A stretch of DNA of 63,997 nt, filler included, from Malassezia furfur (Eukaryota): assembly GCA_052055015.1 (NCBI GenBank). It is 24 parts of 24 records of this genome, joined end to end, with 100 filler letters (N's around TTAATTAATTAA, not from the genome) between each part and the next. Parts side by side here need not be neighbours in the genome. Positions count along the whole stretch, not along the records: positions 35,346 to 37,937 come from JBQJIT010000880.1; 23 more parts are not named here. One strand, 5' to 3'. Positions 6,291 through 56,569 of this stretch are shown here, one piece after another. Each line of letters opens with the position of its first letter. Within the stretch, counting starts at the first letter, position 1. Both the position numbers and the translations under genes were made by a program. Under the pieces are notes generated by a model. That model was not told where the DNA came from and ran no database searches. It was given only the letters and a program-made list of their open reading frames with translations.

Positions 6291-7357
6291 CGAGACGCGG
6301 CTCGACGACGTGGCTTCCCCGCAGCTGGTTCCCGAGCGTGAGCCAGCCGGGGCGCACATTGTGCTGCCGGCCAAACAGCTCGACCTTGCGCGCGCCGGGG
6401 CACAGGCGCTCGATCATCGTATAGAGCTCGTCGGGCTTGCGCGACGTATCGCGCACAGGCGCGACGATCACGTCGTTGCCGACGTCGCGGTGCAGCCACG
6501 TAGGGAGCGGTAGATACATGCCCGGCGGCGGCGCGTCGACGGGCGCCATGCCGCGGCGCTTGAGGCCGACAAAGCAGTGCTCCTTGGTATGGTTGAGCCA
6601 GTGCCCCGTGCGCCCCGTGCGGATGAGCCGCTGCAGCTGGTTGATCTTGACCCAGACGAGCTCGTCGATCCGCACATAGCCCCAGTGCTGCAGCAGCGCG
6701 CGGCCCAGCTCCATCGCGCGGCCCGTGACCCAGAGAAAGAGCAGCCCCTCGTCCTGAAGCTGCGGGATCGGCAGCGCGTACATCTGCTCGTCCGACAGCG
6801 TGCCGTACGGCAGCGACATGTGGATGTCCCACGGGGGGTCGGCGACAATCACGTCAAAGGTGCCGAGCTGCGCGAGGTCGAACGTGCGCAGGTCGCACGA
6901 GATCCACTGCGCCGGCAGCGGCGCGCCCGCTGCGCCGCGCGGCGTGCGCAGCCACGCATCGAGCGCGCCGGCGGCGCGTGTGCGCGCGGGTGCGCCGTGC
7001 GCCGGCTCGTCGGGTGTGCGGTCCAGCACAAAGTGCACAAACTGGGGGGTGTGAGTGGCTCGCACGCACCTTGCACGTCGCCTTGCGGTGGCACGCGTGC
7101 AGGTAGCCGCAGTGCCCCAGGGCCGGGTTCGTGTGGGCGGCGTACACGGGCCGGAAGTGCACGCGCGCACAGGGCCCTCCGTGCGCGGCGCAGGCGTCGC
7201 GCGTGATGTGCTCGCACAGCGCGTCGACGGCCGATCCGCCGCTGTGCATCTGGGTCAGGCATGCACGTACCATGCGAGCGACGAGGCGCTCCTTGGCCGT
7301 CGGCGCGCGCAGGTAGCGCGCCGCGAGCCGCGCACTCGCCCGTGCGCCGTCGTCCAT
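6184..7357 (-). CDS. IME4: mRNA m6A methyltransferase catalytic subunit (METTL3/Ime4, MT-A70); introns 7042-7069 and probably 7250-7270
   Basis: PTAKE motif, two CCCH fingers ([21 protein letters not shown]), [60 protein letters not shown]. Confidence 0.93.
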
Positions 7358-17551: not shown

Positions 17552-19025
17552 ATGTCGGGGTACAAGTACGATGACGAGGGCGGGCAGTTCTTCACGTTCG
17601 CCCTGACGGCAGTCGTGGCATTCCTTGTGCCGTACACGTACAAGACGCTCTTCTCGCGCGTGCGCAGCGTCGCGCACGGGTGGCTCGACCGCCGCGGGCA
17701 CAAAACGCGCACCGCCCAGCGCCTGATGCGCACGTCGTGGGTGCGCACCGCGGCCAAGGGCGCGGTGCTCGTCGCGGGCTGGGCGCTTGTCGCGTACCTC
17801 GTGCGCAGGATCGCGACCGCCGCGAAGAACTCGACGCACGCCGTGTACGACCCGTTTGCGATCCTCGGCATCGCCGCGTCGGCGACCGAGAAGGAGATCC
17901 GCCGCCGCTACCGCAAGCTCAGCGTGCAGTTCCACCCGGACAAGCTGCGCAACGTCGCGAACCAGACCAAGGAGGAGATCGACGCACACTACATCGAGCT
18001 CACCAAGGCGTACAAGTCGCTCACCGACGAGACCATCCGCAAGAACCTCGAGCTGTACGGCCACCCGGACGGGCGCCAGGAGATGTCGCTCGGCATCGCG
18101 CTCCCGACGTGGATCGTCGACAGCCAGAACAGTGCGTGGGTGCTCGGCGCGTACGGCCTCGTGCTCGCGATCGGCCTGCCGCTCCTCGTCGCGCGCTGGT
18201 GGTACGGCACGCGTGCACGCACCAAGGACGGCGTGCTGAATGCGACCGCGCTCAACTTCTTCACCTCGCTGAAGAAGGACATGCGCCGCGCCGAGATCTT
18301 TGCGCTGCTCGGCCGCACCGAGGAGCTCACCGCGTACGCGGCGCAGCTTACCAGCGCGGACGAAGCGGCGTACGACGCGCTCGAGCAGGAGACGCGCGCG
18401 GTGTACAAGCGGCTGCACGGCCACGACGTCGTGCGTGACGACATGCCCGTGCGCGTGCGCCGCGCGACGGTGCTGCTCGCCGCGTACCTGCACCGCGTTG
18501 CGTCGCCGAACGCCCACGTCGAGCAGGGTACGTCGAATGCTGACGCAGTGAAATACGCCATCGGCCACTACACAGACCGGCTGCTCACGAGCCTACTCGC
18601 GATGAGCTCGGCGCACCGCCGCCTCGAGCAGACCTCGGTGGTGCGCGACATGATCCCGTGCGTCGCACAGGCCGTGCCGGTCGAGGGCGGAAGCCTCGCC
18701 GAGATCTGGCAGCTGCCGCACATGACGCTGCCGCTCGCCGAGGCGCTCCTGCAGCACGAGCCGGTGGCCACGCGCGGCCTGCAGGGGCTGTGGAAGGTGC
18801 CGGACGCGGAGCGCCGCAAGGTGCTCATCGGCGACGGCAAGCTCACCGACGCCGCGTACCAGGAGCTGGTCCGTGCGCTCGGCGAGTGGCCGCGCATCGA
18901 GCTGGTCGACGCGTACTTCACCGTGATGGGCGAGGAGCAGGTGACCGCGGGCGCGCTCATGCAGCTCGTCGTCAAGGTGCGCCTGCTGCCGCTCAAGCGC
19001 GACGGCTCGCTCCTGCGCGACGGCC
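17552..19025 (+). CDS. SEC63: ER translocon J-domain protein Sec63 (3'-partial); probable intron 18528-18548
   Basis: Y.YDDEG..F, J domain with HPDK, YGHPDG..SLGIALP.W, Brl domain. Confidence 0.94.
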
Positions 19026-35245: not shown

Positions 35246-35345
35246 NNNNNNNNNNNNNNNNNNNNNNNNNNNNNNNNNNNNNNNNNNNNTTAATTAATTA
35301 ANNNNNNNNNNNNNNNNNNNNNNNNNNNNNNNNNNNNNNNNNNNN

Positions 35346-35703
35346 ACACGAGGCGCCCCGGGAAGAGGAGGTGCTGGATGTAGTAGGTGGTGCCGCCGAC
35401 AAGGATCGGCAGCGTGCTGCGTTCGTGCATGTCGGTGCAGAGCCGCGTGGCGTCCGCGACAAACTGGGTGATGTCGTACTCGTGTGTGGGCGGGAGGAAG
35501 CTGAGCAGGTGGTGCGGGACGCCGCGCATCTCGTCGGCGGGCGCCTTGTTGGTGATCACGTCGAGGCCCTCGTAGGTCTGCATGCTGTCCGCCGAGACGA
35601 TTTCTGCGTGGGTGAGCGAGGCCAACTCCACGCCGAGCTGCGACTTGCCCGTGCCGGTGCTGCCAACGACGGCGAGGAGCGGCGTGTCGTCGCGCGCGAG
35701 ATC
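35346..35703 (-). CDS. MOD5: tRNA dimethylallyltransferase (Mod5/TRIT1) N-terminal exon without own ATG (3'-partial)
   Basis: LLAVVGSTGTGKSQLGVELA..AEIVSADSMQTYEGLDVITNK, VPHHLL, PILVGGTTYYIQ; preceded by CTGAC..TAG acceptor. Confidence 0.92.
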
Positions 35704-35733
35704 CTAGAGGGGTCAGAATTTGCGTCTAAGGCA

Positions 35734-37855
35734 CTACAGCTCAAGGTCCTGAAGTCGCGCTGTGTGTTGGCATCTGTCCAGACGACCGCAGTCCCTGCGC
35801 CGTCCTGCGCCGCAAAAGTACTCACCTTGCTGATCATCGCCGCGGCAATCGGGTGGTCTGGGTGAGCGGCGCGCACGTACAGAAGCTCCGGTGCTCCGCA
35901 AACGTCTTGCGCGCGAGCGGCGCATTCGCCTTGTACAGCGCCTTGTAGATCGCGCGGCAGTACTTCATGCGCCCCTTGTCCTTGACCTGTGTTAGCTTAT
36001 GACGCACCCAGTCGGCGGCCTTCTTCTCGTAGCCGCTGTGCGGCGTCGCGAGCGCCAGCTCAAAGAAGCGCAGCGGGATCTCGTCGTTGGCGTTGTCCGC
36101 CAGCGCATACGCCTCGTCGAGCCACTGCACCGCGTACTTGGGCAGCGGGCCCTGCGACGCGAGGTGCTCGAGGAAGACGACCTTCTGGTTCGCGTTCCAG
36201 CCGTCCATGTCGCCCGCGGCGAACGTGCGCTGCGCGTCGGCGCGCGTCGGCGCCTCGCCGACGACCGAGCGCCACGCGTCCGCAAGCTCGTAGGCGTCGC
36301 GCGCGAGCGTCGTGTCGTACTCCATCGCGACCGGGAGCTTGGTGCCCTCGCCGTAGATCCACGCATCGAAGTCGACCTGCTGCAGGCGGCGCGACACCTC
36401 GGCGTTGTCCGCGTAGTACGCGAGGAGGTGCGCCTTCCACTGCTCGGTGCTCACCGCGCGGTCGTGGAAGGCGTGGAAGTACGCCTTGATGTACGGCGCA
36501 AAGACGTCCAGGCCGCCGACGACGCGCTCGAGGTGCAGGAGGAAGTTGGCGCCCTTGTCGTACGGGATCGTGCTGAACGCGTCGTCGGGGTCCTCGCCGT
36601 CCTCGTAGCCGGGCACGAGGCGCTGGAAGCGCGGCTTGTCCGCAAAGCCCTCGAGCGCCGCACGCAGCGCACGCGCGCCGATGATGTACGAAAAGCCGCG
36701 GTGCGCGGGGCCCTCGGCGTCGCCGTACTTCTTCTGGAGCAGGAGGCGCTCGAGGTACACGGTCCAGCCCTCGTTGAGCCAGAACGAGTCCCAGTTGACA
36801 CACGAGGTGAGGTTGCCGCTCCACGAGTGGCACAGCTCGTGCAGCAGCACGTCCGTCGCGCTGCGGTCGCCGCACACGAGGCTCGGCGTGAGCGTCGTGA
36901 GGTTCGCGTTCTCCATGCCGCCGTACGGGAACGACGGGGGGAGCACCACCGAGTCGTAGCGCGTCCACACGTACGGCGAGACGACCTCCTCGGCGAGCGC
37001 CAGGAAGCGCTCGGCGTCCGCCTCAAACTCCCACTGCACGGCGTCCGCGTCGGGCGCCTCGGCCCACACGCCCGTGCGCGGGCCGAGCGTGCGGAAGGTG
37101 AGCTCGCCGCCGACGATCGCGATCAGGTACGTCGGGATCGACACGGGCTGGCGGAAGGTGTACTGCTTCTGGCCGCCGCCGACGTCCTTCGGCTCGGCGG
37201 CCTGCAGCGCCGACATCAGCACGGGGATCGACGAGGTGACCGACGCCGTGTACGTGATCTTGCGCCCGGGCGCGTCGAAGCACGGCACGAGCGAGCGCGC
37301 GTGGATCGCCTGGCACTGCGAGTACAGGAAGGGCGCACGCTTCGCATGCGTCTGCTCACGCGACAGCCAGCCGAGCGCCGTGCACGCGTCGGTCGTCGTG
37401 TACGCGATCTCGACGGTGACCTCGGTGCCCGCTTCGCGCGCGCCGAGCTGCACCACGAGCGGCTGGCCGAGCGCCTTGTGCCGCGGGCGCAGCTCGGCCT
37501 CGGCCGGCTGCCCATCGACGCGCACGGTGCCGATGTCGAGGTACGACGTGTCAAACACGGCCTGCGACGTGCCCTGCTCGAGCACATGCAGCGTGTGCGT
37601 CACGGTGCCCGCGATGCGCTTCTGCTCCCAGTCGACGGTCCAGTCGAGGTGCAGGCGCTCGGGGCGCAGCTCGTTCAGGTTCGACAGCGAGTGCCGGTCG
37701 AAGATCTTGCCCTGCGGCGGCGCGGGGATCGCGTCCGGCGCAGGCGGCGTCCAGGTCTTTTCGCTCATCTGCGCAGCGTGCGTAGCAGCGGGAAGCGTCG
37801 CACGGGTTCGCACACAGCCGAGGGACGAGAAGGTGCGTGCCAGCAGTCGTAGCAT
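35734..37855 (-). CDS. LAP2: leukotriene A4 hydrolase / M1 aminopeptidase; introns 35987-36007, 35858-35880, 35749-35825
   Basis: SQCQAIHARS, FPYGGMEN, HELCHSWSGN..WLNEGWTVYLER, GRMK, FYHPIA..ISK|DLEL*; second ATG at 37768. Confidence 0.94.
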
Positions 37856-38037
37856 GCGCGAAGATAAGTATCACGTGCGGGCTGCGGGGGAAGGCGCAGC
37901 GGCGGGCCGAGCCGCACCGCAGCAGCGGTGCGCGCGGNNNNNNNNNNNNNNNNNNNNNNNNNNNNNNNNNNNNNNNNNNNNTTAATTAATTAANNNNNNN
38001 NNNNNNNNNNNNNNNNNNNNNNNNNNNNNNNNNNNNN

Positions 38038-50367: not shown

Positions 50368-51301
50368 CTAACGGCGCGCACGGCCCGCACGCTGGGCGTC
50401 GCGGCGGCTGCGGCTGCGGTGAGTGCGGGGGACGACGTACCGGCTGGCGCGCATGTCCGCCTCCTCCATCTTTTCCATCTCGGCCTCGCTCAGGAACTCG
50501 AGCAGCGGACCAAAGTCGGGCGCATCGTGGAAGTCGCGCCACACGCCCTCGAGCGGCCGCGGGCCGAGCGCCAGTAGATCCCGTAGCGTCGCCAGCGCCT
50601 GCTCCTTGCGCACCGCCAGCGGCAGCGTCTTGTCCGGCACCAGGAACGGCACCGACAGCGACGTGTCCGCCGCTGCCGCACCTGCCGCCAGGCGCCGGCT
50701 CCGTGTGTTCGGCGGGGCAAGCACGTCGCCGGCCTCGTCGCGCACCGACGCATCGGGGTCCAGCGTGCTCGCCGCCTCGGCCGCGCGGCGCTGTGCGTCG
50801 TCGCCCGCAGCCTCCGCGTCGTGGGCCCCCGCTTGCTCCGCAGCGGCCTGCATCTCGGCCTGCTCGCGCTTGTACACCTCCACGAGCTCGTCCATGGTGC
50901 ACCGGTAAATCTTGCCGCTGCCAAACAGCCCGAGCTCGAGCGCGGCGCGCCGGTGGCGCAGCAGCTGCTCGCGCACCGCATGCGAGATGAGCACCGTGCT
51001 CTCCGTGCTCAGCCCGAGGTCGCGCGTCAGACTCTGCGCAAACGCCTCGGGCGTCAGCGGCGAGGTCAGGTCCCACTCGAGGCGGTCACGCAGCATGTGC
51101 CGCAGGATTTGCACCTCGTACTGCGTCAGCGCTCCACGTACATCCACAATCACGCGCAAATCGTCCTCCGCGTCGACGCTCGCGAGCGTCTCGCGCACGC
51201 GCGCCTTTTCGGCCGCCTTGGGGTCGGTGAGCGCCGCGGCCGCCTCGCGCTCCTCCGCCGGCGAGTCGCGCGGCGGCGCGTCCTGCACAAACGCGATCGG
51301 C
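50368..51301 (-). CDS. SFH1: Snf5-family RSC subunit Sfh1 (5'-partial); probable introns 51121-51141, 50414-50440
   Basis: DDLRVIVD|YEVQI..LRDRLEWDL..TPEAFA...DLGL..ISHAVREQLL; GVWRD..FGPLLE.LS. Confidence 0.8.
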
Positions 51302-55959: not shown

Positions 55960-56569
55960 CTACTTGGACGCCGACTGCGTCAGCGGGCCACGTACCTCGA
56001 TCAGCGCCGTGATCTGCTTCTGCCGCGCACGCAGCGCCCGCACCGCTGCGCTCTGCTCGCGCTGCCGCGTAGTAAGCTCGGTCTCGAGCGCCTTGGCCTG
56101 CTGCTCCAGCCTGCGTCAGTCGTGTAACGCACCGCCGCCGCTCCTCGAGCTCAAACTGCAGGCGATGTACGAGCAGCAGATGCGCGTCCTCGCACACCGC
56201 CGGCGTGCGGCTTTCTTCCGGCGCGTGCGCCAAAAACGCGTCCATGGGCCGCAGTGGTACCTCCTCGTACACCGTGTCGAGCGGGTCGCACGCGGCAATC
56301 TGTGCCTCAAGCTGCGTGCGCTCGTATACGAGGTGCTGCAGCTCGCGTGCGGCCGCGTCGACCTCGTCGCGCGCCGTGCGCACCTGCGCACGCGCCGCGG
56401 CCTGCGCCGCGTATGCCGCGCGGTTCGCGGCCTTGAGCTGCGCAAGCGCCTGTGTGCTCTGCATTAGCACCTCATAGCGCCCTGCATCGTCGCCTGCGTA
56501 CGGCGGCGCGTGCGTGGGCAGCGCCAGCACGGCGTGCGCCGCGTGCTGGGCGTCGGTGCTCGTCGTCAT
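55960..56569 (-). CDS. THO complex subunit Thoc5/FMIP-like short protein; introns 56111-56132, 55975-55995
   Basis: LKAANRAAY...R.EVD...LQHLVYE..QL..QI..C, HLLLVHRLQFELEERRRL. Confidence 0.8.

Follow-up and report, generated by a model that had tools for sequence, protein, structure and literature searches.

A candidate pair of alternative 3' splice sites between leukotriene-A4 hydrolase and tRNA isopentenyltransferase genes in Malassezia furfur

In a 63,997-base stretch of DNA from Malassezia furfur (assembly GCA_052055015.1; 'the window' below means this whole stretch), the gene for leukotriene-A4 hydrolase (LTA4H), an M1 aminopeptidase, is followed immediately on the same strand by the first part of the gene for tRNA isopentenyltransferase (MOD5). 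The exon that ends LTA4H has two candidate acceptors downstream of it: the proximal one completes a stand-alone LTA4H, and the distal one joins LTA4H to MOD5 in frame. We favour, with moderate confidence, the explanation that an old LTA4H-MOD5 fusion of Ustilaginomycotina has been kept in Malassezia as an alternative 3' splice-site unit that would yield either the free peptidase or the fusion. The use of each acceptor, and the ratio between them, are what we infer from the genomic evidence set out below.

The locus

The window is composed of 24 contigs of about 2.6 kb, arranged by descending size and separated by linkers (44N + TTAATTAATTAA + 44N), and its GC content is 69.7%. Both LTA4H and MOD5 are on the minus strand and lie wholly inside one 2,592-bp contig (window positions 35346-37937). 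Because the contigs were joined artificially, the DNA past the linkers is unrelated to the locus, and MOD5 stops at the contig end at 35346. No second copy of MOD5, nor any further piece of it, was found elsewhere in the 63,997-base window. Relatives with P-numbers were compared as proteins and not as DNA, whereas L001 is a relative that was compared as DNA. The features that carry the argument are as follows.

35826-35857, minus strand: shared 32-nucleotide exon, ..(Y)HPIAAAMISK, which completes ..FYHPIAAAMISK and ends in phase 0
35749-35825, minus strand: proximal intron of 77 nucleotides, GTGAGT to CAG (G at 35749), read from the sequence
35734-35748, minus strand: mini-exon GAC CTT GAG CTG TAG (DLEL*), read from the sequence and kept in L001
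35704-35733, minus strand: spacer with CTGAC (35716-35712, branch A at 35713) and the distal TAG (35706-35704), from the branch-site match
35346-35703, minus strand: first 119 codons of MOD5, DLARDDTPLLAVVGSTGTGKS..DSMQTY..GGTTYY.., from Pfam and homology; ends at the contig end
35683-35685, minus strand: ACG codon (Thr of DDTPLL) within MOD5, where the related protein P0002 has M

Two candidate acceptors behind one exon

The shared exon, with the letters (T)AC CAC CCG ATT GCC GCG GCG ATG ATC AGC AAG, contains a candidate nested ATG (that of MISK, 35837-35835) and is followed by a phase-0 donor, GTGAGT, beginning at 35825. Splicing to the proximal acceptor would give LTA4H the end KDLEL* and a length of 637 residues, counted from the second ATG of the gene; stand-alone fungal LTA4H proteins end in KDLGL.. 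(for example, KDLGLYEETA) or RDLGLE. The distal acceptor lies at the end of a 122-nucleotide intron (35704-35825) that includes the proximal intron, the mini-exon and the spacer. Its TAG (G at 35704) is followed by GAT CTC GCG.. (DLARDDTPLLAVVGSTGTGKS), in phase 0 with the donor. Either acceptor satisfies the LTA4H C-terminal pattern HP[IV]....KDL(x)L, as KDLEL* with the proximal and as KDLARDD.. with the distal one. A base-by-base reading reproduced all coordinates of the original prediction (exon 35857-35826, donor 35825, acceptors 35749 and 35704) and also its observation that both acceptors open with Asp-Leu (GAC CTT vs GAT CTC).

The distal exon is recognizably MOD5. The region 35703-35346 matched the Pfam IPPT family (7.4e-24) and has both the P-loop, GxTGxGKS, and the DSMQxY motif; its matches to solved structures (1.8e-25 to 2qgn and 5.8e-25 to 3eph) begin at residue 9 of the exon, LLAVVG. 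The P-loop, DSMQxY and GGTxYY are common to the window MOD5, Saccharomyces cerevisiae Mod5 (3eph) and bacterial MiaA (2qgn, 3d3q, 2zm5 and 3crm). Mod5 and MiaA are encoded by stand-alone genes with their own start, whereas in the window the only in-frame upstream AUGs belong to LTA4H. The acceptor TAG is itself the in-frame stop that bounds the MOD5 open reading frame (ORF), and no ATG was found in the MOD5 frame between this TAG and the P-loop in the window.

Two candidates of other kinds in the same interval were rejected. Read-through of the stop codon of DLEL* would have to pass three stops (TAG, TGA and TAG). A regulatory hairpin in the RNA around the proximal acceptor was rejected because the fold is not conserved in L001: the window segment 35695-35840 (minus strand) gave z = -2.26, a fold that 2 of 200 shuffles matched, and the L001 counterpart gave a different fold (z = -1.22, matched by 22 of 200 shuffles). 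A separate observation concerns the proximal intron, in which the stretch 35760-35825 (minus strand), translated as GAGTAVVWTDANTQ, resembles the read-through part GAGTLVVWTDTNTH of the M. yamatoensis and M. psittaci gene models. The motif GAGT.VVWTD.NT within it is common to P0004 (68.75% over 32 residues by tblastn) and is out of frame with MOD5; pairwise alignment revealed no counterpart of it in L001.

Local splicing signals

Ultrashort introns in Malassezia have already been published: in the curated M. sympodialis annotation, introns average 30 bp and RNA sequencing supports 99% of them (PMC5389616, Table 2). Using a strict intron pattern (GT[AG][ACT]GT .. CTNA[CT] .. YAG), we identified 25 ultrashort intron candidates in the window, compared with 9.5 +/- 2.7 in 30 shuffles; most have 21-34 nucleotides, in keeping with the M. 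sympodialis mean. A branch-site matrix was then built from 22 candidates, with the two LTA4H introns excluded. Donors in these 22 were GTACGT (15), GTGCGT (5), GTATGT (1) and GTGAGT (1), the acceptor was CAG in 21 and TAG in one, and the branch A lay 5-10 nucleotides from the acceptor.

The top match to this matrix in the 122 nucleotides past GTGAGT was the distal TTCTGACC, and the next AG after it is that at 35704, at a distance of 9. No consensus CTNAC or other branch-like site that could serve the proximal CAG was found in this interval of the window. In L001, the distal branch sites scored 8.7 and 6.4 bits, and the proximal CCTTAC 4.6 bits. Although the matrix is partly circular, the distal acceptor conforms to the local splice grammar no less well than the proximal acceptor does.

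Conservation in an independently assembled relative

A metagenome scan returned one locus, L001, an independently assembled metagenome contig of 41.8 kb whose MOD5 is 59% identical to that of the window. A scan of prokaryote genomes gave a single match, a bacterial MiaA (L002) with 27% identity, which was not used. L001 reads AAAMIRK / GTACGT..CCTTAC..GGCAG / GACCTCGGGTTGTAG (DLGL*) / ggctcaCCTGACcgTAG / GAT ATT CAT.. (DIHAHRTANVVAVVGSTGTGKS). Its proximal intron, homologous to that of the window, has 35 nucleotides, and no in-frame ATG was found before the P-loop of its MOD5. When the two loci were aligned, the shared exon, the 15-nucleotide mini-exon with its stop (the CAGGACCT.G.G.TGTAG block) and CTGACC were conserved, and the remaining spacer was unalignable; the second acceptor lies 30 nucleotides past the mini-exon stop in the window and 17 in L001.

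We also listed every way of pairing a plausible donor and acceptor behind an upstream ATG so that MOD5 is read in frame. There were three in the window and five in L001; one solution alone occurred in both, in which the final LTA4H donor is spliced in phase 0 to the TAG that bounds the MOD5 ORF. Judged from these two sequences, the shared LTA4H-MOD5 anatomy exceeds chance. Three elements of the original prediction recur here: the normal LTA4H end given by the proximal CAG (KDLEL*, with its DLGL* mini-exon counterpart), the in-frame join to MOD5 through the distal TAG with its CTGAC, and a MOD5 frame with a stop directly upstream and no ATG before the P-loop.

Fused proteins in related fungi

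The architecture of Peptidase_M1, Leuk-A4-hydro_C and IPPT, for which the original prediction had proposed a search, was present in 14 of 34 long LTA4H relatives. These 34 came from a search with LTA4H exon 1 restricted to proteins of 1029-2935 residues, and in the remaining 20 LTA4H was merged with unrelated domains. The 14 IPPT-bearing proteins came from Malassezia psittaci, M. yamatoensis, M. vespertilionis, M. cuniculi, Pseudozyma hubeiensis, Melanopsichium, Tilletiaria, Exobasidium and Sympodiomycopsis, together with one JGI and four Logan sequences. Among the 120 matches listed when longer proteins were searched with the MOD5 fragment, at least seven had the three LTA4H domains plus IPPT. 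With P0009, the M. vespertilionis protein, as query against 1.84 billion cluster representatives, two of the best 150 matches (P0003 and P0211) covered both halves, and no new fused lineage appeared. From the 14 of 34 and the two of the best 150, the LTA4H-IPPT architecture looks confined to Ustilaginomycotina.

The junction runs directly to DL in half of the 14 proteins, namely P0009 (MIRK/DLAPSPAVVSVLGSTG), P0051, P0210, P0211 and P0212 (IEKDLGL.. or DLAL..), P0215 (IAS/DLALP..) and P0216 (IEKDLNL..). In four others (P0003, P0020, P0213 and P0214) an intron is read through before DL, and three (P0004, P0013 and P0049) are joined otherwise. P0009, a model of 1101 residues named 'leukotriene-A4 hydrolase', thus has the junction proposed for the window, MIRK/DLAPSPAVVSVLGSTG corresponding to K/DLARDDTPLLAVVGSTG. 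Its LTA4H is 67% and its MOD5 N-terminus 75% identical to the window sequences, in a comparison of proteins only, with P0009 the product of automatic annotation.

The Ustilaginaceae fusions include P0210 of P. hubeiensis ('Leucine aminopeptidase 2', 1191 residues), P0051 of Melanopsichium pennsylvanicum ('related to leukotriene-A4 hydrolase', 1065 residues) and the Logan ORFs P0211 and P0212. As in the window locus, LTA4H precedes MOD5 on one strand, a phase-0 intron follows ..HPIAAA.I.K, and DL opens the next exon. However, their frame (..AAAQIEKDLGLVALQVQPRTPDVITIFGSTG) passes from DLGL to MOD5 without a stop, and therefore LTA4H there ends only at the MOD5 end; the frame is also without Met in all four of these proteins. 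In Ustilaginaceae, DLGL or DLAL runs on through a linker of 10-15 residues and one acceptor suffices, whereas the window and L001 have a stop after DLEL or DLGL and a second branch site and acceptor further on.

P0212 and P0211 lack a 128-residue insert of the Logan ORF P0214 and match P0214 on both sides of it with 99.5-99.8% identity. The insert corresponds to 384 nucleotides, begins with VS (GT..) after IEK and ends with Q (..CAG) before DLGL. The proteins probably represent spliced and unspliced forms of one gene, which, as deduced from proteins, would place a spliced, fused message in that Ustilaginaceae lineage. The P0214 intron is open in frame for all 128 codons and that of P0213 is open too, so that ORF callers read through them. 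As a general observation, gene callers treated the locus inconsistently, some models being fused, others running through the intron and others cutting MOD5 short at an internal Met.

The join between the two enzyme domains

Human and yeast LTA4H (1hs6 and 2xpy) show full-length homology (5.8e-136 for P0009) and have HEXXH-x18-E, GXMEN and the C-terminal KDL in common with the LTA4H described here; they carry no C-terminal enzyme. In P0009, homology to human LTA4H ends at residue 635 (KDLA), which aligns with position 609 of 611 in the human chain; homology to MiaA starts from 635-640. These limits, together with those of the window exon, indicate that the first two residues of the MOD5 exon finish KDL and that the linker has about six residues. 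In the window, L001, P0009 and P0003, the first two residues of the MOD5 exon are D[LI], with SL in M. cuniculi, and the next 5-8 residues are unrelated. The retained D[LI] fits selection to complete the LTA4H end KDL within a fusion protein.

An AlphaFold2 model of P0009, built with a 50-sequence alignment, had a mean predicted local distance difference test score (pLDDT) of 92 and a predicted template modelling score of 0.77. The last LTA4H helix occupies 624-633 and the first MOD5 strand 639-645, with a pLDDT of 89 for the junction block 631-640. P0009 is thus predicted to be a compact two-enzyme protein without a disordered linker.

Proposed explanation

We propose that transcription would start from the LTA4H promoter and that the donor at 35825, after ..AAAMISK, could pair with either acceptor. 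The proximal CAG (35749) would add DLEL and a stop, giving the stand-alone LTA4H of 637 residues. The distal TAG (35704), with its own CTGAC, would join K to DLARDDTPLLAVVGSTGTGKS in phase 0, giving one polypeptide with a complete LTA4H ending in KDL, about six linker residues and then the first MOD5 strand. Most MOD5 activity would then come from this fusion, since this assembly shows no ATG belonging to the MOD5 frame itself. Two start codons of LTA4H, ATG 37855, which opens a presequence-like extension, and ATG 37768, could route the fusion to mitochondria or cytosol. In yeast MOD5, two in-frame AUGs serve mitochondria and the cytosol/nucleus.

With regard to origin, Malassezia would have gained the stop after DLxL, the second branch site and the second acceptor on top of the old fusion. 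We tentatively suggest that this is gene fission caught half-way, in which the MOD5 half may still depend on the promoter, start codons and presequence of the peptidase, and some sister lineages may have gained a MOD5 start of their own.

Alternative explanations

Several observations weigh against the proposed fusion, and the strongest concern the start of MOD5. P0002, a Logan ORF of 480 residues with 13 member sequences, is 99% identical to the window MOD5 over 112 residues (residues 2-113, corresponding to 35682-35347); it is full length, ending in a C..C...H....H stretch, and starts MPLLAVVG exactly at the ACG codon of the window (35685-35683). This codon may thus be a MOD5 start in the species, may be polymorphic, or may carry a wrong base in the window. 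An M before the P-loop is also present in P0005, P0006, P0007, P0011, P0012, P0016 and M. cuniculi (HMAVGVIG). Furthermore, the four Malassezia fusions from NCBI were predicted automatically, and two of these models (P0003 and P0004) plainly read through the intron; the four fused ORFs from Logan share only 59% identity with the window LTA4H and have junctions of the Ustilaginaceae type. No RNA-derived fused ORF of Malassezia was found among the 34 long relatives, all four Malassezia proteins longer than 1029 residues there being NCBI gene models, which is weak evidence. No Malassezia name occurred among the 120 stand-alone-length MOD5 relatives listed, and the 15 Malassezia-like ones there are ORF calls. 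As for splicing, the TAG acceptor is rare locally (1 of 22), 122 nucleotides is a large size in a genus whose introns average 30 bp (PMC5389616), and the branch-site matrix is partly circular, because its training introns were chosen by a pattern that demands CTNA[CT].

The observations on P0002 and its like would be explained if fission were complete and LTA4H and MOD5 were two neighbouring genes, with MOD5 translated from its own short-leader mRNA from 35685-35683 (an ATG in the real genome, or the near-cognate ACG) and the TAG and CTGAC unused. MPLLAVVG would be sufficient as an N-terminus, since homology to solved isopentenyltransferases starts at LLAVVG; M is near the P-loop in the other Malassezia-like MOD5 ORFs P0005, P0007, P0012, P0016 and that of M. 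cuniculi; and the assembly is very fragmented, with contigs of 2.6 kb. Nevertheless, we consider complete fission unlikely. The window does have ACG at this codon, and no Met occurs in the corresponding stretch of L001, of P0009 or of the exon-derived part of P0003. ORF callers may print M for GTG or TTG, so some of the M starts may be of this kind, and at least one printed M is a non-ATG start (P0008 has MLAVVG where P0006 has VLAVVG). A transcript starting within the 122-nucleotide interval would meet the ATG at 35773 first, which leads to a stop after 10 codons (ATG CCA .. TGA). In addition, CTGAC and TAG stand at the exact ORF boundary, in phase 0, and are conserved in two genomes whose spacer is unalignable. 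The original claim that MOD5 needs the splice was too strong: the absence of an ATG in the window supports it, and the M of P0002 at the ACG and the Malassezia-like ORFs with their own start speak against it.

A second way to obtain a free MOD5 would be a nested transcript, with a promoter in the 3' part of LTA4H, the ATG of MISK (35837) as first AUG, and the distal acceptor, producing a stand-alone MOD5 (MISKDLARDDTPLLAVVG) and no fusion, with LTA4H always spliced to the proximal acceptor. This ATG is in phase with both the donor and MOD5, and the same ATG (MIRK) occurs in L001 and in three of the four NCBI Malassezia models. The resulting lead of 12 residues would be normal for the family, as yeast Mod5 and MiaA homology starts from exon residue 9, and overlapping transcripts and untranslated regions are reported in the main text of PMC5389616 to be common in the compact M. 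sympodialis genome. The Met, however, occupies an ordinary hydrophobic position of the LTA4H C-terminal helix, with Q in Ustilaginaceae and Tilletiaria and L in M. cuniculi, and therefore no start-codon role is needed for its presence. A nested transcript would also leave the retained D[LI] at the MOD5 exon start without explanation, and in Ustilaginaceae, with their continuous frame, the domains have no Met between them. We regard such a transcript as quite unlikely, even though sequence does not separate it from the fusion; of the originally proposed one gene with two proteins, it is the fusion half that the anatomy, L001 and the fused relatives back. A different first exon for MOD5, running from ATG 35925 in another frame through the intron-2 donor at 35880 to the distal acceptor and giving MRRSRARRLRSTGAS/DLARDD.., was rejected because L001 has no intron 2. 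Finally, an artefact, either a misassembled contig near 35700-35830 or a MOD5 pseudogene in decay, seems hardly credible. Although the assembly is fragmented and MOD5 ends at a contig end, the stretch of 119 MOD5 residues shows no disruption, retains the P-loop and DSMQTY and shares 74-99% identity with relatives, the window has a single copy, and the order of the P0004 matches is collinear with the contig. The misassembly at 35700-35830 that had been named as grounds for refuting the original prediction was not borne out, as it is countered by the same anatomy in L001.

LTA4H gene structure and other features

The remaining features of the locus and the window are listed here.

37769-37855, minus strand: upstream in-frame ATG (37855) and 29-residue presequence-like extension MLRLLARTFSSLGCVRTRATLPAATHAAQ, preceding MSEKTW
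36008-37768, minus strand: LTA4H exon 1, from the second ATG (MSEK..) to ..AADW, from Pfam, motifs and homology
35987-36007, minus strand: intron 1, 21 nucleotides, GTGCGTCATAAGCTAACACAG (GTGCGT..CTAAC..CAG), from orthologue comparison
35881-35986, minus strand: LTA4H exon 2, VKDKGRMKYCRAIYKAL..HRSF plus T, from alignment with P0004
35858-35880, minus strand: intron 2, 23 nucleotides, GTACGTGCGCGCCGCTCACCCAG; excision restores FYHPIAAAMISK
7250-7270 (minus), 18528-18548 (plus), 51121-51141 (minus) and 55975-55995 (minus): examples of ultrashort intron candidates, with GTACGT or GTGCGT, CT[CG]AC, 2-6 nucleotides and CAG
35246-35345 and 37938-38037: examples of the artificial linkers

The LTA4H subfamily is defined by GXMEN and the zinc-binding HEXXH-x18-E, and by a catalytic Tyr in PYxKG. 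These motifs are intact in the window, with GGMEN at 312, HELCH-x18-E at 339-362 and PYDKG at 431 (numbered from ATG 37855). The region 37768-36008 matched Peptidase_M1_N (1.9e-23), Peptidase_M1 (4.8e-41) and Leuk-A4-hydro_C (1.2e-10), all beyond the curated cut-offs, and exon 1 covers the last of these domains in part only. Exon 1 shares 77% identity with its counterparts in M. psittaci and M. yamatoensis. Every feature of the LTA4H subfamily of M1 metallopeptidases that we tested was found in the predicted protein.

The second ATG, at 37768 (MSEKTW..), is the conserved start. The 29-residue extension before it begins MLRLLARTFSS and contains four R+K, no D+E and six S+T, and comparable N-terminal extensions were observed in L001, P0004, P0020 and P0211. 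Its presequence-like composition suggests that dual targeting through start-codon choice may occur.

Intron 1 is in frame without a stop, and if retained would be translated as VRHKLTQ; the P0004 orthologue (ADWVKDKGRMKY) lacks these seven residues. L001 has an intron of 24 nucleotides at the same site (L001 5745-5768), likewise in frame and stop-free, and thus retention would merely insert 7-8 residues. Similar in-frame mini-introns were seen to be read through in the MOD5 of P0002 and P0010 (for example, ..AIGTCTAHTGYKEF.. vs ..AIGYKEF..). Intron 2 is not present in L001.

Discussion

The fused architecture is already in public protein sets under peptidase names, and what is new is the Malassezia form with its stop and second acceptor. 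This form combines gene fusion/fission with alternative 3' splice sites, both of which are already known as such. To our knowledge, there is no functional link between an M1 aminopeptidase and a tRNA isopentenyltransferase. Our literature search found no paper on an LTA4H-isopentenyltransferase fusion, nor on a fusion of a tRNA isopentenyltransferase gene in basidiomycetes. The main text and one supplement of PMC5389616 mention neither leukotriene nor isopentenyl, and PMC10077639 contains nothing relevant to the fusion.

If the proposed fusion is true, the only tRNA-i6A37 enzyme of a subphylum that includes skin commensals (Malassezia) and crop smuts would be tied to an M1 aminopeptidase. In Ustilago maydis, the tRNA isopentenyltransferase is UMAG_10043, and passages of PMC7680852 describe its deletion to study fungal cytokinins and the resulting phenotypes. 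If UMAG_10043 shares its frame with LTA4H as the genes of its relatives do, these deletion phenotypes may need re-examination. If the explanation is true, the Malassezia arrangement would also be a clear natural case of alternative 3' splice-site choice between a free and a fused enzyme, and would show how fused genes separate.

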